DNA from: Octopus vulgaris
Lineage: Eukaryota
Reading direction: 5' to 3'
Assembly (NCBI GenBank): GCA_951406725.2
Contig: OX597817.1
Coordinates: 135,408,001 to 135,472,000 of the forward strand
Length of the DNA stretch: 64,000 nt
In this document: piece by piece, positions 4,793-54,857 of the stretch
Layout: each line of letters begins with the position of its first letter
Position numbering within the stretch: the first letter of the stretch is position 1
Made by a program: the position numbers and the translations under genes
Notes under the pieces: model-generated
Database searches by the model: none
What the model saw: the letters and a program-made list of their open reading frames with translations, nothing else
What the model was told of the DNA's origin: nothing

Positions 4793-5492
4793 CAAGTGCC
4801 CGGGAACAGGGGGTGCAGTGGGTGCACCTGCACCCCTTGCAATTTTCAGGTGGTGCAAGATCAAAATTTGCACCCCCTACATAATTTTACCAGTTTCAGA
4901 AAATAGTGTCTAAAAAATTATCAGTATAAGATGCTTGAAGCTAGATTTCGTTTCAAACCAAAAACAAAAAACAAAAATAAATAAAACTGATGAAGCTTGG
5001 CTTAAAATTCCCAAGGGAATTTATGACTAACCAACTTCTGAAGCAAAGTAGCGTCGAAATAAAAAGTATGTAACAACAACAACAACAGTAGCAGCAAACA
5101 ACAAGAACAACAACATGACCAGCATCTACGGCTACTCTTCAATACATAGCATTACTTGGATTCTTGAAGACAGCTCTATTCTGACAAAAATAACTCCGAA
5201 ATCTTACAATGCTGAAAATATGTGAAGGTTCTTGTCCTCTCTCTATCTGTCACTCTTCTCTCTCAAGTTATTTGTAGTTGATGTCGCTAAAGACTGACGA
5301 CATGGGTGACTGTTTGACCTCAGCAGAAAAATTAAAAACCCTTTAAAAATTCTTTCAGTCATATCGGTTTTCTCATTTAGGTTGTTAGGTGCAAAGTTTG
5401 ACGAGGGAAAAAAATTGATTTATTTTTATCTTTCATATTTGATGCTCATTGTAAAATGCTTTGATATTTGTTGCTCATTCGAAATACTAGTC

Positions 5493-5817
5493 CATCCTCG
5501 GAACTTTCCAGAAAATACCTCATTCTCGGAACTTTCCAGGAAATCCCTCATCCTTGGAATTTTCCAAGAAATCCTCATCCTCGGAACTTTCCAGGAAGTC
5601 CCTCAACCTCGGAACTTTGCGGGAAGTCCCTTATCCTCGGAAATTTCCAGGAAATCCTTCGTCCCTTGGAACTTTCCTGGAAATCCTCATCCTCTGGACT
5701 TACCACGGAATCCTCATCCTCGGAACTTTCCAGGAAATCCTTCATCCTCGGGACTTTCCATTAAATCCTTCATCCTCGGTACTTTCCAGGAAATCCCTCA
5801 TCTTCGGAACTTTCCAG
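5493..5817 (+). repeat. Minisatellite, about 28-bp unit (catcctcggaactttccaggaaatccct), about 11-12 copies
   Basis: Tandem units visible; directly abuts the LINE RT fragment. Confidence 0.93.
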
Positions 5818-6545
5818 TGCTGAAATATGTGGATGACACCAAGCTGTACCTTGAAATAAAAAGAACAGTTCCTATCCTGCAATCAGACCTGGATACAATG
5901 CAGCAGTGGACCTCTGACTGGCAACTCAAGCTAGCTGTAGACAAGTGTGTCACCATGCATTTTGGGAGGAAAAATCCAGCCTTTACATACTCCCTCAGCC
6001 ACACCAATCTCAAGAATTCTTCTAGTGGACATGATTTGGGTATTATTGTAAACAACAAACTTCATTGGACAAACCACATATCTAAGATTGTCAAAAAGGC
6101 TGAGGGGTGTGTTAGCATCACTCAGTAAGACCTTTGTCAACCACTCTCCAGCTATCTATTTAAAATTGTATACAACAATGGCATGTCCACACTTGGAATT
6201 TGCATCACTAGTCTGGAAACCCTCTCTTGCTCAGCATATAAATCTCCTGGAAACTGTTCAGAAATGTGCAACAAAGCGAATATCCGCCGTCAGACATCTA
6301 CCATACTCTGAACGTCTTGCTTTCCCGGGAATGGATACATTGAAGCCCAGACGTCTGGCAACTGACTTCATTGACACCTACAAGATTATCCACCATATTT
6401 CCAACAACATATGGTACCTTTTTGAATTCCATATGACAAACACTCACGGACATGCTTATAAAATCAAAAAACAACACAGCACCCATGACTTTCGGAAACA
6501 ATTTTTCATGCTCAGAATTGCAGAAGCATGGAATAAATTTCCTTC
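5817..6545 (+). mobile_element. CR1-group LINE reverse transcriptase 3' fragment (frameshifted)
   Basis: KYVDDTKLY, LQSDLDTMQQW, DLGIIVNNKLHWTNHI, PHLEFASLVWKP, LETVQKCATK, YSERL, RIAEAWNKFP. Confidence 0.9.
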
Positions 6546-11535: not shown

Positions 11536-12429
11536 ATCATTTTTTTTTCTTTTATTATCTCTACATCGCAGATATCATATCGCACAGATATCATATACGA
11601 CCGGACCCTTCATTCATGAAGATATCTCTTTCAGTTCAGAAACCAGTTTTGTTATTTCATACAAAACTAAACGACGCAGAATTTCTTCGTTTTTTTCTTT
11701 CTTCTTTTTTCTTTTTCGCCTTCAGCTCGCTTAAGTAGTTCGCTTATTGACTTCCACACATTTTATCTTATAACTTATCTCTGTCGGGTAGCATCAGATG
11801 GCACCAGCCCAGATAACGGTAAACATCAACCCAGAATGAGATCTACATTAACTCTAAACTTTGGCGAACCAAAACAATATAATAGTATGTGTGACCATTT
11901 AATAGTTTTCCATTATCTCAAGAAATGGAGCCACTCCACCCCCCAGCACACACATCACCTCCCCCACACCTACTTAATACTTGAAAGGAATTAATCGCCC
12001 ACTTAAGGAATGGAGACGATGCCTATCAAGTTCGCTCATACTTAATTGAGAGTGTGTCTCGGCGTATATATGTGTGTGTATGTGTGTATGTGTGTAGCTA
12101 TAGATATGCATGTTGTTTTCGAAAAAAGTGTGAAAGGAACATTTGCTATGTATATGTATGTATACACACACACACACACACACACACGTCCACTATAATC
12201 CAGCGTTTGCAATACTTTTTTCGTCTGGCGTTAACAGCCCTTCTTATCTTGTTCTCCTTGTCCTGTCTCTCACTGTTATATATTTATTTTTCCACTGTTT
12301 ATATATATATTTTTTACTGTTTATATGTTTGTACTGTCGTTACCGTCTTGCTTTTTTTTACCCCTCTGCGACAAGATCTCAGAATTTTAATTGATTTGCT
12401 TTTCGCAGGAAGGAATTTTTCATTCGAAG

Positions 12430-12495
12430 TATACGTCTCGCTTTTATCCTTTGAAACGTTTAGTAGATGAAACTTTAGCGACTGAAGAAGGGGAT
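12430..12495 (+). ncRNA. Candidate reversed-order hammerhead ribozyme (family A, copy 1)
   Basis: tatacgT C tcgct - ttt - atccttt GAA acgttta - 14 nt - agcga CTGAAGA aggggat. Stems: I tcgct/agcga, II aggggat/atccttt, III tatacgt/acgttta. Confidence 0.6.
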
Positions 12496-13266
12496 TTTTC
12501 GTTGTGCTTATTGTCCTGTATCTCCTTTTTTTTTTTGCTTGTCTTGTTCCTTGGTTTGTGTCTATGTTTTTCGTCTCTCTATGTGTTCGACGTCCCTTTG
12601 GTGTCCTGTACACATATATGCGTGTATATGTACATGTAGAGGTAGGTACGTACATATATGTTTATATATATGCATATATTTTATTAACATATTATACGAC
12701 TAAACGCACGCACCCTATTAAGTAAGATTGTTCTGTTTATCAAGTTCGCCTTGATATTAACTCTCACGCGACTCTGCATCTTTCTTTCTTTCTCTCCCAT
12801 TCCCTTTTTCGTCTTTTTTCCCTCACTTAACTTGTCTCTTCCTCTCTCTCTCCCCCTCACTGTTCTTCATGGTCTCCTCGCACCATTCCCCTTCTTCTCT
12901 CTCTTCCTCTTGCTCCTCCTCCCCCATTCCCGTCGTCCATCTGCGACGTACTTCCGTCGTAACTGCTATCCCGTCTCTTCTCACCTGCCTTCTAAGGCCA
13001 CTGGTCGACATCTTCCTCTCTCGTCGTCCACTATAATCCAGCGTTTGCAATACTTTTTTCGTCTGGCGTTAACAGCCCTTCTTATCTTGTTCTCCTTGTC
13101 CTGTCTCTCACTGTTATATATTTATTTTTCCACTGTTTATATATATATTTTTTACTGTTTATATGTTTGTACTGTCGTTACCGTCTTGCTTTTTTTACCC
13201 CTCTGCGACAAGATCTCAGAATTTTAATTGATTTGCTTTTCGCAGGAAGGAATTTTTCATTCGAAG

Positions 13267-13332
13267 TATACGTCTCGCTTTTATCCTTTGAAACGTTTAG
13301 TAGATGAAACTTTAGCGACTGAAGAAGGGGAT
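13267..13332 (+). ncRNA. Candidate reversed-order hammerhead ribozyme (family A, copy 2)
   Basis: Identical to 12430-12495. Confidence 0.6.
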
Positions 13333-13516
13333 TTTTCGTTGTGCTTATTGTCCTGTATCTCCTTTTTTTGCTTGTCTTGTTCCTTGGTTTGTGTCTATGT
13401 TTTTCGTCTCTCTATGTGTTCGACGTCCCTTTGGTGTCCTGTACACATATATGCGTGTATATACATGTAGAGGTAGGTACGTACATATATGTTTATATAT
13501 ATGCATATATTTTATT

Positions 13517-13558
<42 letters not shown>

Positions 13559-13809: not shown

Positions 13810-14614
13810 CTTTGTTTTCCATTTGTGTCTCGTTGTAAGAAAGAATAGTTCATGTTCCAGGTACTCGTACTTCGTACTTTTTTGCTGTAAACGTTTCATG
13901 ACGTCCTGTGCCCACATATGCATGTATATATATGTATACGTATAGAGGTAATTATGTATATATACTAATGTATATATACATATATATATATTATTCATAT
14001 TATTATATGACTGAACGCCACTTCTAAGTAAGTTTTATTTTAATAATTCTGATGCGCACTCTATTCGATCTTTTTACTCTTTCGTTTTCCTCTCTCTTAT
14101 TCTTTTACTTCCTCTTCTCCCACTATTCTATCCTATTACTCTGTCATTCTCACTACCTCACTCCGCCTCCCTTGCTCAGGTGGCTCCCACGTGGCCATCG
14201 GTCATCTTTCTTTCTTTCTCTCCGTTGTAACTGGAACAAGGAAGACATGTTCTTGTTTGTTCTCCTGTCCAAGCTCGATTTACGCGTTCGCCACCACCAC
14301 CTCATTTAGGCTTAGCAGCCCTTCCTGTTTGTTTTCACTGTCCTGTTTGTGTTACCAATTTTGACCCTCAGCAAAATCCCAAATTTTATTTAGTTTGCTT
14401 TGCGGCAGCAACTGTTTTATCGAAAGTATATATTGTTGTTAAATGCTCGAAATACGAGACTAGACAAATAGCCAATATCTGATGAAGGGTCGTTGTTTAT
14501 GTTTGTTTTGCCCCATTTGTGTCTTTCGTTTTTCGAAAGAATATTTCATGTTCTATGTACTCATGCTTCGTGCTTTTTTGTTGTACACGTTTCATGACGT
14601 CTTGTGTCCACATA

Positions 14615-14618
<4 letters not shown>
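13810..14618 (+). mobile_element. ORF-less PLE-like element family B: partial tandem (about 700-bp unit) in (TA)n
   Basis: 13810-13925 repeats about 14510-14618; unit start tattatatgactgaacgc resembles family A attatacgactaaacgc; homologous to 33535-34045. Confidence 0.7.
14426..14490 (+). ncRNA. Candidate reversed-order hammerhead (family B, partly decayed)
   Basis: gtataT A ttgttg - ttaaat - gctc GAA atacg - 16 nt - caatat CTGATGA a gggt. Confidence 0.5.
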
Positions 14619-21527: not shown

Positions 21528-23213
21528 AGCCGGGCGAAGAACTGGCAGAAACGTTAGCATGCCGGGCGAAATGCTTAGCGGTATGTCGTCTGCCGTTACG
21601 TTCTGAGTTCAAATTCCGCCGAGGTCGACTTTGCCTTTCATCTTTTCGAGGTCGATTAAATAAGTACCAGTTACGCACTGGGGTCGATATAATCGACTTA
21701 GCCCGTTTATCTGTCCTTGTTTGTCCTCTCTGTGTTTAGCCCCTTTTGGGTAGTAAAGAAATAGGTATTTCGTCTGTCTTTACATTCTGAGTTCAAATTC
21801 CGCCAAGGTCGACTTTGCCTTTCATCCTTTCAGAGTCAATTAAATAAGTACCAGGTACGCACTGGGGTTGATATAATCGACTTAGCCCGTTTGTCTGTCC
21901 TTGTTTGTCCTCTCTGTGTTTAGCCCCTTGTGGGTAATAAAGACATAGGTATTTCGTCTGTCTTTACATTCTGAGTTCAAATTCCGCTGAGGTCGACTTT
22001 GCCTTTCATCCTTTCAGAGTCAATTAAATAAGTACCAGTTACGCACTGAGGTCGATATAATCGACTTAGTCCGTTTATCTGTCCTTGTTTGTCCCCTCTG
22101 TGTTTAGCCCCTTGTGGGTAATAAAGAAATACGTATTTCGTCTGTCTTTACATTCTAAGTTCAAATTCCGCCGAGGTCGACTTTGCCTTTCATCTTTTCG
22201 AGGTCGATTAAATAAGTACCAGTTACGCACTGGGGTTGATATAATCGACTTAGCCCGTTTATCTGTCCTTGTTTGTCCCCTCTGTGTTTAGCCCCTTGTG
22301 GGTAATAAAGAAATAGGTATTTCGTCTGTCTTTACATTCTGAGTTCAAATTCCGCTGAGGTCGACTTTGCCTTTCATCCTTTCAGAGTCAATTAAATAAG
22401 TACCAGGTACGCACTGGGGTTGATATAATCGACTTAGCCCGTTTGTCTGTCCTTGTTTGTCCTCTCTGTGTTTAGCCCTTGTGGGTAATAAAGACATAGG
22501 TATTTCGTCTGTCTTTACATTCTGAGTTCAAATTCCGCTGAGGTCGACTTTGCCTTTCATCCTTTCAGAGTCAATTAAATAAGTACCAGTTACGCACTGA
22601 GGTCGATATAATCGACTTAGTCCGTTTATCTGTCCTTGTTTGTCCCCTCTGTGTTTAGCCCCTTGTGGGTAATAAAGAAATAGGTATTTCGTCTGTCTTT
22701 ACATTCTGAGTTCAAATTCCGCTGAGGTCGACTTTGCCTTTCATCCTTTCAGAGTCAATTAAATAAGTACCAAGTTACGCACTGGGGTTGATATAATCGA
22801 CTTAGCCCGTTTGTCTGTCCTTGTTTGTCCTCTCTGTGTTTAGCCCCTTGTGGGTAGTAAAGAAATAGGTATTTCGTCTGTCTTTACATTCTGAGTTCAA
22901 ATTCCGCCAAGGTCGACTTTGCCTTTCATCCTTTCAGAGTCAATTAAATAAGTACCAGTTACGCACTGGGGTCGATATAATCGACTTAGCCCGTTTGTCT
23001 GTCCTTGTTTGTCCTCTCTGTGTTTAGCCCTTGTGGGTAATAAAGACATAGGTATTTCGTCTGTCTTTACATTCTGAGTTCAAATTCCGCCAAGGTCGAC
23101 TTTGCCTTTCATCCTTTCAGAGTCAATTAAATAAGTACCAGTTACGCACTGGGGTTGATATAATCGACTTAGCCCGTTTGTCTGTCCTTGTTTGTCCTTT
23201 CTGTAAAGAAATA
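21528..23213 (+). mobile_element. SINE family 2 concatemer: one head plus 9 tandem about 184-bp bodies
   Basis: Units start ggtatttcgtctg at about 21580, 21764, 21948, 22132, 22316, 22499, 22683, 22868, 23051; 16-bp TSD ggtaatat(c/a)ggtcgaa at 21512-21527 and 23214-23229. Confidence 0.92.
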
Positions 23214-23324
23214 GGTAATATAGGTCGAATACTAAATAAAATATATTGGGTTGTCAGATAAATTCGTTCGTTTTTTATCTACATTGTTGTGTGTCTGAAA
23301 TGAGGTGAAATTTATTCAAATTTC

Positions 23325-29426: not shown

Positions 29427-29657
29427 GGCGGCGAGCTGGCAGAAACGTTAGCGCGCCGGGCGAAATGCTTAGCGATATTTCGTCTGCCGTTACGTTCTGA
29501 GTTCAAATTCTGCCGAGGTCGACTTCGCCTTTCATCCTTTCGGGGTCGATAAATAAAGTACCAGTTACGCACTGGGGTCGATGTAATCGACTTAATCCCC
29601 TTGTCTGTCCTTGTTTATCCCCTCTATGTTTAGCCCCTTGTGGGTAGTAAAGAAATA
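29427..29657 (+). mobile_element. SINE family 2 monomer
   Basis: ggcggcgagctggcagaaacg head, B box gagttcaaattc, central gcctttcatcctttcggggtcgataaataaagtacc (Meta-domain-like), end gtaaagaaata. Confidence 0.92.
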
Positions 29658-29749
29658 TATACTGTGTCTGAGACGCCCCTGGCTGATCATAAGCAGCAGG
29701 ATTGACCGAGGGTTAAACAACAACAACAACTAATGTTGAAGTAACCCAT

Positions 29750-33534: not shown

Positions 33535-33536
<2 letters not shown>

Positions 33537-34045
33537 TATGTGGGCACAGGACGTCATGAAACGTGTACAACAAAAAAATACGAAGCACGTATTTTTTCGA
33601 ACAACGAAAGACACAAATCAAAAGCAAGACAAATAACATAAAGAACGACCCTTCATCAGTTGTTGGCTGTTTTTCTAGTCTTGTATTTCGAGATTTAACA
33701 ACAATATACGCTTTCGATAAAACCGTTGCTCCCGCAAAGCAAATTAAATAAAATTTGGGATTTTGCGGAGGGTCAAAATTGGTAACACAAACAGGACAGT
33801 GAAAACAAACAGGAAGGGCTACTAAGCCTAAACGAGGTTGTGGTGGCGAACGCATAAATCAAGCTAGGACAGGAGACAAACAAGAACACGTCTTCTTTGT
33901 TCCAGCTACAACAGAGAGAAAGAAAGAAACACTAGTTAGGAGAAGAAAGAAAGATGGCCGGTGGTCACGTGGTAGCCACGTTAGCAAGAGAGGAGGAGTG
34001 AGAGAGTGAGTGGCAGAGTAATAGGATAGAATGGAGAGAGAATAT
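33535..34045 (-). mobile_element. ORF-less PLE-like element family B copy in (TA)n
   Basis: Reverse complement aligns by eye with about 14110-14618; microsatellite on both sides. Confidence 0.8.
33648..33710 (-). ncRNA. Candidate reversed-order hammerhead ribozyme (family B, best-preserved copy)
   Basis: Reverse complement: cgtaT A ttgttg - ttaaat - ctc GAA atac - 17 nt - caacaa CTGATGA a gggt. Stems: I ttgttg/caacaa, III gtat/atac, II ggg/ctc. Confidence 0.6.
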
Positions 34046-34431
34046 ATATATTATTTATATTATTATACATGCATATATATATATATATATATACACACAC
34101 ATAAGGATAAGCATATTAAAAGGGATCCATGGGAATACTCATTTAAATAAAAGGACTGGGAGCCAGTGTTGGGAACCACTGGTATAAAGTAAATAGTTGC
34201 TACCTTGAAGGAGAAAGAATGGTTGATATAAATATTATGCTGCGATGGATAGAGATAATAGTGGAGTTAGTATTTGGCGCTGGCACTGTTGGCCTCTCGG
34301 CTACATCACAGTAAACATGCGCATTGGTGCACTCATATATACCCACGTACACGCACTTCGCATCCGTGGTATCAACATAAATACCGGAGTCAGCTTCCAC
34401 TACTATCTTTACCTCTCCCGGCTCAATATTT

Positions 34432-39861: not shown

Positions 39862-41395
39862 TATTATTATCTTCTTTTTTTATCTAGTTTCAGCTCACAA
39901 GCTGTGGCCATGCTGGGGCACCGCCATTTGGTGTTGCTACATGATTTTACTTCACGAATGCTTTTTAGCAATTGCCATTTGGTGCATGGGAGAGTTCGGT
40001 GCAGCTGCTCTCATCTGCACCTCCTGCCGTGAAGTTGGTTCATCTGGGACACCTGACAAGAAGAGATCCAGTTTTATTTTAAAGATATCTGCATCCACCC
40101 CATGCAGGTCTCTTAGGTTCTTCGGGAGGATATTGAAGAGCTGTGGGCCTCGGAAGCCCAGGCTATCACAGTATCTCGTCCTACATCTTGATGGTAAATT
40201 TGGAGTCCTTGGCACTATGCAGTGGCGCCCAGTTCTGGCATTTGTGTAACTCTCGATGCGAAAGTTTGGGACAAGTCCTTCTAGGATCTTCCAGATGTAT
40301 ATTATGGCATATCTTTCTCGCCTACGCTCTAAGTAATAGAGTTTCAATCTCTTGAGTCTTTCCCAATAGCTTATATGCTGCACAGAGGCTATCTTCTCCG
40401 TGTAGCTTCGTTGGATCGCCTCAAGTTCTGTGATTAACTTGACACTGGATGGTCACCATAGCTGAGAGCAATAGTCAAAGTGGCTTAGGACAAGTGTCCT
40501 CCAGAGGACCATCATGGTTTCCTGGTCTCTTGTTCTAAAGGTTCTAAGAATCCATCCGGTCAGCCGCCTACATTTCTTTGCCAATTTAGCAACATGCACA
40601 TGAAAGGTTGCATCATCACTCATGTAAATACCCAGATCTCGCACTGATTGTGCCTCTGGGATTGCAATCCCTCCAGGTTCAGTGTATTTATTGGGTATTG
40701 CATTTAGTTTTGTATGCTGATAGCATAAAGCTTGAAACTTTTCAGCATTGAACTGCATGCTATTCTTTTCAGCCCACTTGTATATTTTGTCCAGCTCACA
40801 TTGCAGGTGCTTAGTGTCTTCAGGGTTCTGTATTGCCTGTGAAACTTTTGTATCATCTGCATAACTTGTGATCGTGGCTCTCTGCGTGGCTGAGGGCATG
40901 TCTGAGAGGACCATTATGAACAGTAGTGGTCCCAAAACAGTGCCTTGCGGAACACCGCTCACTATTTGCGTGCTAATGGAAGTGGCCCCATTGGCTACTA
41001 CCACCTGACTTCTATCCTTCAGAAAGTCATGAAGCCATTCTCCCAGTTTTCCAACTATGCCAAGATCACGCAGTTTGTGACATATCATTCCATGATCGAC
41101 TTTATCAAAGGCCTTTGCAAAGTCGAGATATATGACTTCCACATTTGAGTGGTTGAGTAGTCGTTTCAACACCCAGTCATAGTGTTGTAGGAGCTGAGTT
41201 AAGCATCTTCTTCCTGGTCGGAAACCATGTTGGGTGTCAGGCAGCAAGTCATTTTCTTCAAGGAAGGGGATTAGTTTCCTTCTGACTATTCGTTCCATGA
41301 CCTTGCTGATGTATGAGGTCAGAGAGATAGGTCTGTAGTTCTTGGCCTCCGCTCTGCTACCTCCTTTATGAATAGAGCATATTTTACCTTCCTTC

Positions 41396-41398
<3 letters not shown>
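39862..41398 (-). mobile_element. CR1-group LINE, 5'-truncated, nearly intact RT domain plus 3' tail
   Basis: NYRPISLTS, QHGFRPGR, VIYLDFAKAFDKVDH, SGVPQGTVLGPLLF, YADDTK; frameshift near 40453; ORF stop at 39952; tail ggcggtgccccagcatggccacagcttgtgagctgaaac. Confidence 0.93.
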
Positions 41399-41487
<89 letters not shown>

Positions 41488-41499
41488 TACATACATATA

Positions 41500-44605: not shown

Positions 44606-45035
44606 ATTTCGAAATAGTCATTTTGCCAGTTTAGCCAATAAAAACACACGCACTATATATTTGGTGTTACTTTGCTTCAGTGTTATTTATTTTTTACATT
44701 AATCTTAATCTTATTTCGGCCAGAGTTCTTTCGTCACACTCCTGTGACCGCATCAGTGGTCCTTTGCTTTCTTCTTTCTTATTTGTGTGTCTCTCCTTAC
44801 TAACCGTCAGCCATTTTGTATTTCTATTGTATGCGTCTTCATTTGTGCATGCGTATATATCTATGTGCGTCTATGTTTATATATATAAACGTATATAAAC
44901 AGAAGATACAAATATTACAAGCATTTCCCCCCACACACACACTAACTAAACATAGACGCACATAGAGATATACGCATGCGCAAATGAAGACACATACAAT
45001 AGAAATACAAAATGGCTGACGATTAGGAAGGAGAG
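44600..45035 (-). mobile_element. PLE-like terminus with internal inverted repeat (44791-44878 / 44948-45035)
   Basis: About 88-bp inverted arms visible; HHR-like motif at 44720-44759; begins at (TA)n. Confidence 0.7.
44720..44759 (-). ncRNA. Minimal type I hammerhead variant (CUGAUGC core)
   Basis: Reverse complement: cca CTGATGC g gtcaca ggag tgtgac GAA ag aa cT C tgg. Confidence 0.6.
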
Positions 45036-47561: not shown

Positions 47562-47978
47562 GGCGTCGCGCTGGCAGAGTCGTTAGCACGCTGGACGAAA
47601 TGCTTAGCGGTATTTCGTCTGCCGCTACGTTCTGAGTTCAAATTCCGCCGAGGTCGATTTTGCCTTTCATCCTTTCGGGGTCGATTAAATAAGTACCAGT
47701 TACGCACTGGGGTCGATATAATCGACTTAATCCGTTTGTCTGTCCTTGTTTGTCCTCTCTGTGTTTAGCCCCAAGTGGGTAGTAAAGAAATAGGTATTTC
47801 GTCCGCCGTTACGTTCTGAGTTCAAATTCCGCCGAGGTCCACTTTGCCTTTCATCCTTTCGGGGTCGATAAATTAAGTACCAGTTACGCACTGGGGTCGA
47901 TATAATCGACTTAATCCGTTTGTCTGTCCTTGTTTGTCCTCTCTGTGTTTAGCCCCTTGTGGGTAGTAAAGAAATAGA
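47562..47978 (+). mobile_element. SINE family 2 dimer (one head, two bodies)
   Basis: TSD tattggatgtacaa on both sides (47548-47561 / 47979-47992). Confidence 0.92.
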
Positions 47979-48576
47979 TATTGGATGTACAAGGAAAAGC
48001 GGACAGTAAGCGGGGATAGGTTTTAAAAGGCTTTCGTTGAATCCACCTTCACTCAAGAAAACGAAAATCAGTTTAAAGAAAAAACGGAAAAAGAGCGATT
48101 CTAATGAAATATTGAAACAAAATAGAAATATTAATATAAAAAAAAAAGAAATCAATATTGAAAGATATGCAAACCAAGGATATTCCAAGGTTACAAAATT
48201 TGGAAAAGTAGTAAATTTTCCACGAAAATTGCCGGATTATTCGTTAATTTAATCAAAAATTTAATATGAAAAAAATATCTTCCATTTTGTGTATATGTAA
48301 TTCCTTTTTTTGCGTGCGTGTATATGGAAGAGGTTAGCAGTTTAACTGGACTGGATGGATGAGTTCTTGTTGTCAGTTCCACTGTTCTAGTTATCCAGGG
48401 GTCAACAGTTTAACTATCAAGATCATTTAATTTAAGCAGAAAATAATGTGTCTTGGTGCGACATCTCCGCAAGGTTTTAATTGAAAACAAATTGAATTGT
48501 TTTGTATAGATATGTTGTATGTGGTGTATAAATATTTTTCCAGTTCTATATTTAAGAGATGGGGAATTATGTACAA

Positions 48577-54260: not shown

Positions 54261-54857
54261 GGCGGCGAGCTGGCAGAAACGTTAGCACGCCGGGCGAAAT
54301 GCGTAGCCGTATTTCGTCTGTCGTTACGTTCTGAGTTCAAATTCCGCCGAGGTCGACTTTGCCTTTCATCCTTTCGGGGTCGATAAATTAAGTACCAGTT
54401 ACGCACTGAGGTCAATGTAATCGACTTAATACCTATGTATGTCCTTGTTTGTCCCTTCTGTGTTTAGCCCCTTGTGGGTAATAAAGAAATAGGTATTTCG
54501 TCTGCCGTTACGTTCTCAGTTCAAATTCCGCCGAGGTCCACTTTGCCTTTCATCCTTTCGGGGTCGATGAAATAAGTACCAGTTACGCCCTGGGATTGAT
54601 ATAATCGACTTAATCCGTTTGTTTTTCCTTGTTTGTCCTCTCTGTGTTTAGCCCCTTGTGGGTAGTAAAGAAATAGGTATTTCTTCTGCCGTTACGTTCT
54701 GAGTTCGAATTCTGCCGAGATCGGCTTTGCCTTTCATCCTTTCGGGATCGATTAAATAAGTACCAGTTACGTACTGGGGTCGATGTAATCGACTTAATTC
54801 CTTTATCTGTCTTGTTTGACCCCTCTATGTTTAGCTCCCTGTGGGCAATAAAGAAAT
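54261..54857 (+). mobile_element. SINE family 2 trimer (one head, three bodies)
   Basis: Bodies restart at aaataggtatttc (about 54492 and 54676). Confidence 0.92.

Follow-up and report, generated by a model that had tools for sequence, protein, structure and literature searches.

A candidate hammerhead ribozyme with stem II replaced by a predicted four-way junction in octopus repeats and Naiad retroelements

Introduction

Hammerhead ribozymes whose three core blocks, the cleavage block (S), the GAAA block (G) and the CUGAnGA block (C), follow each other in the order S-G-C or C-S-G were shown to cleave by Eckert et al. 2023 (PMC10085705), under a scheme in which the three blocks are assumed to be unbreakable. 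According to the available text of that study, neither form was seen in the genomes of known organisms; type-SGC was found almost only in metatranscriptomes, and type-CSG comprises two sequences, from metagenomes only and without a host element. Hammerhead variants with additional helices also exist (Weinberg 2015, as cited in the available text of PMC13725137). The Naiads, Penelope-like elements described by Craig et al. 2021 (PMC8557442), are stated in the accessible part of that paper to lack canonical hammerheads, with no fold given there, and stretches termed “HHR_core” and “HHR_half_core” are flagged in Naiad 3' UTRs, including that of Naiad_Ovul.

Here, we describe a conserved hammerhead motif of S-G-C order in repeat families of Octopus vulgaris and in the 3' UTRs of Naiads, in which stem II appears to be replaced by a four-way junction and which, considered at the level of families and judged from comparative sequence analysis, is probably self-cleaving. 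The motif shares with type-SGC (HRIMA-1 and its variants; PMC10085705, available text) the S-G-C order, the full core and an extra helix joining stems I and II, and the linker between these stems is short in both, typically 3 nt in type-SGC and 1-5 nt in the ten representatives compared here. In type-SGC, however, the block C flank pairs directly with the block G flank, whereas here each flank would pair with an upstream strand via a four-way junction, and the habitat differs, metatranscriptomes in the one case and animal genomic repeats in the other. The circular block order is that of type-CSG, and the strand that we call Y lies upstream of S, where the CSG stem II strand sits, but type-CSG has the whole of block C upstream, whereas here CUGAnGA and the stem I strand lie downstream of block G (PMC10085705, available text). 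Because the motif would work like a hammerhead but without a direct stem II, we class it as a new hammerhead variant and not as a member of type-SGC. The same form is not described in the available text of the literature searched, which included bioRxiv 10.64898/2026.07.22.740005, PMC13725137, PMC10162972, PMC3088659 and PMC6155905; supplementary figures, most subscription papers and Weinberg 2015 were outside its scope.

Materials and methods

The window, a 64-kb stretch of O. vulgaris DNA, was searched with a descriptor that called for blocks S, G and C in succession and a minimum of 4 bp in each of stems I and III. The genome searched comprised 2.8 Gb in 227 contigs. The majority sequence of family B, the repeat family that is the main subject here, was derived from 47 copies sampled via a downstream anchor. 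For the analysis of 5' ends, 69 copies of family A (70 of 408 anchors, with one adjacent duplicate dropped) and 89 copies of family B (91 of 454 anchors, with 2 dropped for failed alignment) were used. Metagenomic loci, the best 80 of 439, were fetched with an alignment of 22 Naiad RT-ORF relatives. Ten representatives, namely families A, B, C and D and six clean metagenomic Naiad 3' UTRs, were compared helix by helix; because X and H came out at the wrong positions when five metagenomic ribozymes were aligned automatically, a script was used to count the pairs one block at a time. The twister likeness of the 3' ends of Naiad_Mley, Naiad-4_Chem and Naiad-1_Movir was judged against the twister consensus. 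For published Naiads (PMC8557442, available part), inspection by eye covered the 3'-terminal 350-430 nt of 39 of the 54 consensus sequences and, for some further entries, snippets around the core, so that the counts given for them are not computed tallies.

Results and discussion

The window copies

Three matches to the S-G-C descriptor occur in the window, at 12437 (+), 13274 (+) and 33705 (-), against 5 matches in total in 100 dinucleotide shuffles of the window. With the four-way junction added, 2 matches remained, both of them family A, and the 100 shuffles gave 0. The match at 33705 lies in the 3' part of a family B copy (Table 1). The first-pass annotation had described here, on the minus strand, a rearranged hammerhead with an AUA triplet, a 6-bp stem I, a 4-bp stem III and linkers of about 6 and 16-17 nt, and its letters, core, stems and linkers are as it gave them; the predicted cut after H at 33705 likewise agrees with our model. 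The 65-nt span that it assigned to the structure is too short, in that the fold begins some 65 nt further upstream, at 33774, and extends over about 130 nt in all.

Table 1. Predicted ribozymes, their parts and the repeats that carry them (window coordinates)
Feature	Position	Strand	Remark
Non-coding copy of family B, flanked on each side by (TA)n	33535..34060	-	
Whole predicted ribozyme, about 128-130 nt	33647..33774	-	
Helix X upstream strand, pairs with 33652-33647	33769..33774	-	Present in MFE fold
Hairpin H, 7-bp stem, directly between X and Y strands	33732..33768	-	
Helix Y 5' strand; first G predicted as G10.1	33727..33731	-	
Helix Z 5' strand (stem I-II link)	33719..33725	-	One change vs family majority
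Block S: stem III strand, triplet AUA, H17 at 33705, stem I strand	33699..33709	-	
Predicted cut	between 33705 and 33704	-	
Block G: helix Y 3' strand, GAAA, stem III strand	33683..33692	-	Y 3 bp here, 5 bp in majority; 1-nt deletion
Helix Z 3' strand	33667..33673	-	
Block C: stem I strand, CUGAUGA (33659-33653), helix X 3' strand	33647..33665	-	
Second family B copy	14115..14615	+	Decayed ribozyme at about 14363-14491
Family A predicted ribozyme, same layout, H17 at 12437	12361..12493	+	In first, 5'-truncated tandem monomer
Family A predicted ribozyme, H17 at 13274	13198..13330	+	In second monomer (about 12690-13520)

The 33705 copy fails the strict junction cut-off because a 1-nt deletion shortens helix Y to 3 bp; a relaxed model accommodates it with X7 H7 Y3 III4 I6. 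Compared with the family B majority, its defects are this deletion in Y, one change in Z and a shortened stem III, and the copy itself is probably impaired as a ribozyme; our confidence in its own activity is low. Plain folding of the copy recovered X and H and did not set the region apart (z -1.6), by a method that cannot model pseudoknots. No Rfam hammerhead model appeared among the 150 of 235 window matches listed, which were microsatellite-driven miRNA matches. A second, decayed family B copy had also been proposed, and such a copy exists and is decayed, but it is on the plus strand, inverted relative to 33705; by eye (H at 14432), it has lost the first stem I pair and the G that starts helix Y, and its stem III is down to 3 bp.

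The family B majority structure

Genome-wide, a first look at family B yielded 3625 candidates, a 21-nt anchor was matched exactly 454 times, and the copies examined were mostly single. Its majority sequence forms X6 H7 Y5 Z7 III5 I6, with standard pairs throughout. Helix X joins the 6 nt that follow CUGAUGA to a strand located 69 nt upstream of the cut; this upstream strand leads into the 7-bp hairpin H, which is followed by 5 nt pairing with the flank before GAAA (helix Y). With no unpaired bases between them, X, H, Y and the core would thus make a perfect four-way junction, and helix Z (7 bp) bridges the distance from the end of Y to where stem I begins. The pairing anticipated for a family B consensus holds for stem III, which has 5 bp, but not for direct stem II, which starts with an A-C mismatch or, after a 1-nt shift, has 4 bp with two G-U pairs. 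Duplex energies are -10.2 kcal/mol for X, -5.4 for Y and -2.2 for direct stem II.

The core is intact in 25 of the 47 sampled copies, and 8 of the 47 retain the core together with all six helices. Identity to the majority is 95% in the core and 92% in the flanks, a near-flat profile of the kind expected when copies decay after insertion; the conservation signal sits between families, and comparison within a family is nearly uninformative.

Conservation of six helices across ten representatives

In all 10 representatives, positions 1-3 of helix X and positions 1-4 of H, Y, Z and stems I and III are paired, mostly with 2-5 pair types per helix position. Stem I has 4-8 bp, stem III 4-6 bp and helix Z 6-10 bp, lengths that come from the best-fit model and lean high, with the shuffles as control. 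The hammerhead core (CUGAnGA, GAAA and U16.1-H17) is present and A15.1-U16.1 is invariant. The pair G10.1-C11.1 lies under the hammerhead core. Its equivalent is present in the representatives at the first position of helix Y (Y1), as G-C in 9 of 10 and as G-U in 1 of 10. The earlier view of a rearranged hammerhead with stems I and III compensated across families is upheld by these varied pair types, and the short direct stem II, which it had itself named as the weak point, is not, the first pair being formed in 2 of the 10 representatives, or in 4 if a 1-nt shift is allowed. The relaxed model gave no fit for the single copies L112, L124, L104 and L178, and L018 and L137 were partly misfolded.

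These counts bear on the reading of the motif as a plain type-SGC hammerhead whose direct stem II is short and for which X and Y would be an off-state that hides stem II. Its S-G-C order and short linker between stems I and II fit Eckert et al. 2023 (PMC10085705, available text), and since direct pairing reaches 4 bp after a 1-nt shift in families A, B and C, and 7 bp without a shift in the family A variant of the window, a switch is possible in this genome; direct pairing amounts, however, to 0 or 1 bp in the six clean metagenomic examples and to 0 in family D, and is broken in family N, the Naiad 3' UTR of the genome. The invariant-like G-C, moreover, is located at Y1, and X and Y together pair much more stably than the direct duplex. 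We therefore consider the type-SGC reading improbable.

Repeat families of the octopus genome and their link to Naiads

Five repeat families, A, B, C, D and N, share the layout, each in letters of its own. Families A and B are non-coding, have their 3' end beside (TA)n and are 5'-truncated. Family A (1887 first-look candidates and 408 exact anchor matches genome-wide) forms tandems of 830-832 bp, 98-99% identical among the best hits, with one hammerhead motif per monomer. Non-LTR retrozymes with a type I ribozyme were reportedly described by Cervera and de la Pena in 2020. Animal non-LTR retrozymes, proposed to derive from Penelope-like elements, are, like family A, non-coding tandem monomers with one hammerhead each (bioRxiv 10.64898/2026.07.22.740005, available text); family A differs in its monomer of about 830 bp and its predicted, non-circularly permuted ribozyme. 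Family A, present in the window at 12187-13520, is very young, yet the genome yielded no intact Naiad; in the window variant the first Y pair is G-U instead of G-C.

Families A, B and C are related, with 70-80% identity in patches, and in family D helix X is short or separated by unpaired bases. A 14-nt motif common to C and N has 1242 matches, against 1 for a control. Family N is located about 770 nt downstream from an RT ORF and matches the published Naiad_Ovul 3' end by eye. The RT ORF has 40 full-length relatives, and all 6 of the 40 that were scanned have an N-terminal GIY-YIG and a C-terminal RT, which identifies the carrier of family N as a Naiad; family N itself carries the RT half only. 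Its majority has I6 III5 Y6 Z5, with one mismatch in H and a weak X (3 bp, then a mismatch), and Y1 is G-C.

Naiads carry an ORF, whereas families A-D do not: no ORF with N-terminal GIY-YIG and C-terminal RT was attached to families A or B in 60 loci, and no coding partner was found for families A-D. The Naiad RT matches listed in the genome, with 134 of 752 candidates scored, were all fragments, mostly with stops. The repeats show (TA)n targets, a fixed 3' end, 5' truncation and partial tandems; (TA)n targets, 5' truncation and partial tandems are reported for Naiads, and such insertion features are hallmarks of Penelope-like elements (PMC8557442, available text). The repeat is likely a passenger of Penelope-like (Naiad-type) retroelements, the link of families A and B to Naiads being one of shared architecture and position, not of sequence.

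Two other Penelope-like families with long open frames were seen in the genome, one Neptune-like with 781 aa and an upstream ORF and the other with about 720 aa (L146-L151; L061-L080). A Penelope-like ORF beside the family B copy in L006 was rejected as a partner, as it belongs to a separate, active family with a C-terminal endonuclease in which the motif is absent in 20 loci. The intact 781-aa Neptune-like family was also set aside, with repeats lacking a hammerhead of any order in 6 full loci; one of these 6 has a single weak antisense hammerhead call inside the ORF. The ends of both C-terminal-endonuclease families with long open frames were scanned, and the hammerhead motif was not found.

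Predicted ribozyme forms in Naiad 3' UTRs

Among 66 metagenomic Naiad 3' UTRs of at least 150 nt, from a sample biased by the query toward the subclade of junction carriers, 7 were called as the junction form, 4 as CSG and 55, many of them short or cut, as neither. Junction calls numbered 0 of 66 on the antisense strands; in 6600 shuffled UTRs the junction form was called 8 times and CSG once, and 80 ORF-side stretches gave 1 call. Six of the 7 junction calls are clean, and the seventh (L260) is doubtful and looks like chance. The six carriers and the Naiad of the octopus genome fall into one RT subclade, with RT identities of 31-59%. At the gathering score, Rfam found 0 hammerheads in 20 Naiad loci, including five junction carriers, and no Naiad relatives were found in viral contigs.

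By eye, the junction layout is recognizable in 10 published Naiads (Bfor, 3_Chem, Amil, Aacu, Anas, 2_Movir, EuTe, Obim, Ovul and, probably, Plae), among which three coral entries and two octopus entries are near-duplicates, and is imperfect in Naiad Esco; six nematode Naiad consensus sequences show the CSG form (PMC8557442, available part). In the metagenomic set, clean type-CSG hammerheads were seen in the 3' UTRs of L235, L250, L265 and L266, so that CSG forms (4 of 66 UTRs) occupy in other Naiads the slot of the junction form.

Another conserved structured motif fills the same slot in one Naiad subclade (L207, L221, L222, L224 and L236) and inspection by eye also revealed it at the ends of bivalve, hemichordate and Clytia Naiad consensus sequences (PMC8557442, available part). 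L224 had no Rfam match at E 0.5; the motif is a candidate unannotated RNA and may be a ribozyme. The 3' ends of Naiad_Mley, Naiad-4_Chem and Naiad-1_Movir hold, by eye, motifs resembling twister ribozymes (PMC8557442, available part), and these twister-like ends suggest that Naiads may swap ribozyme classes. SECIS-like matches were observed in Naiad 3' UTRs (L226:1987-2048, and weaker ones in L216, L218, L233, L248 and L253), consistent with the selenoprotein Naiads described by Craig et al. 2021 (PMC8557442, available text).

5' ends of genomic copies near the predicted cut

Reverse transcription of cut RNA would be expected to leave the 5' ends of copies gathered immediately downstream of the cut. 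In family A, 12 of 52 copies at risk end in the 0..+19 bin, against 22 of 536 in the other 20-nt bins (p 1e-6), the bin having been picked after the first 30 copies of each family had been seen; the 40 loci fetched after that choice gave 5/28 vs 14/305 (p 0.008, with the earlier reference). In 60-nt windows, 20/59 ends fall after the cut and 1/39 before it (p 9e-5). Two family A ends lie at -1 and 0, and five at +7 share a short (TA)n match that may bias end calling. In family B, 11/72 ends fall in 0..+19 vs 31/471 in other bins (p 0.007), and the 60-nt windows gave 23/84 after vs 10/61 before, which is not significant (p 0.09). In 3 of 4 sequencing runs, the depth of contigs increases close to the cut; as contigs cannot show ends and DNA copies are 3'-biased, this increase is not counted as evidence.

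Among 20 distinct best-hit arrays of family A, a single 5' end lies immediately past a cut, which means that uncut ribozymes were read through when most arrays were copied. Position 11.1 is U in 46/64 monomers of the best-hit arrays, a set chosen by likeness to the window copy, and C in 43/49 anchor-sample copies; a weaker ribozyme tied to array formation is only a lead.

The read-through seen in the arrays and the modest pile-up in family B would also suit a fold that is conserved without cleavage, as a hammerhead-derived 3' UTR signal for RT binding, termination or stability, with the 5' ends produced by RT stall or strand transfer. The catalytic CUGA, GA, GAAA, U16.1 and H17, however, are kept across elements with RTs 31-59% identical, and a structural stall would be unexpected at 0..+19, where the 3' strands of most helices would already have been copied. 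A purely non-cleaving role thus appears unlikely.

Proposed structure, remaining alternatives and implications

Many diverged examples share the strand order X'-hairpin H-Y-Z ... S ... G ... Z'-C-X, with complementary strands in six helices. In the self-cleaving junction fold that we favor, helix Y would stack under A9-G12 in place of stem II, with its upstream G acting as G10.1, and the chain would exit the core after A9 into helix X, stacked on hairpin H. Helix Z would hold stems I and II together, and the strands would cross between A9 and G10.1. It is between these two nucleotides that the extra nucleotide of a viroid hammerhead is said to sit. That a viroid hammerhead tolerates a single extra core nucleotide is cited in the available text of PMC6155905. 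The layout would then correspond to the SGC/CSG circle with its A9-G10.1 bond opened and helix X as the closure. Cleavage, which in family B would fall about 170 nt before the 3' end of the element, may trim or monomerise element transcripts, and the 3' products may sometimes be reverse-transcribed and inserted. The motif is, in our assessment, probably a natural hammerhead outside the six three-block permutations, with the chain opened at A9/G10.1 and stem II completed from upstream via the four-way junction, and handed down in a single Naiad lineage that spans ctenophores, corals and octopus.

The family A tandems of 830-832 bp, and Penelope hammerheads reported to act as dimers (cited in PMC10085705, available text), would also suit a canonical hammerhead formed in trans between tandem monomers, the order within a single copy being incidental; a canonical core in trans still requires the direct stem II that most examples lack, and the layout is kept in single-copy Naiad UTRs, which makes this arrangement highly improbable. 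A chance match amplified through repeat copying is just as hard to credit: copies within a family are indeed not independent, and A, B and C are related, but the window shuffles yielded no junction match, the 7 calls in 66 Naiad UTRs compare with 8 in 6600 shuffles, and every helix has different letters among the examples.

If the self-cleaving junction fold is correct, CUGAnGA and its stem II strand are separable, and existing descriptors and Rfam models miss a whole class. Non-circular permutations would move from anonymous metatranscriptome contigs to animal genomes, with a clear host element and copy numbers in the hundreds to thousands, and for part of the clade the published account of Naiads as spreading without hammerheads would be overturned. 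Taken with the CSG forms in other Naiads, it would give non-circularly permuted hammerheads their first known home in genomes, in these retroelements, and partly resolve the “missing” Naiad ribozyme, and a ribozyme role in Penelope-like retrotransposition would become testable.

Other features of the window

One more fragment of the family B 3' tail, a short one, lies at 13866-13920. A 184-bp unit, which looks like a common dispersed repeat, is arranged in tandem at 21533-23300, 29427-29726, 47562-48045 and 54261-54823. RT fragments (Pfam RVT_1) at 40453-41496 (-) and 5382-6128 (+) do not adjoin the ribozyme repeats, and a long inverted repeat with a microsatellite spacer occupies 44791-45035.
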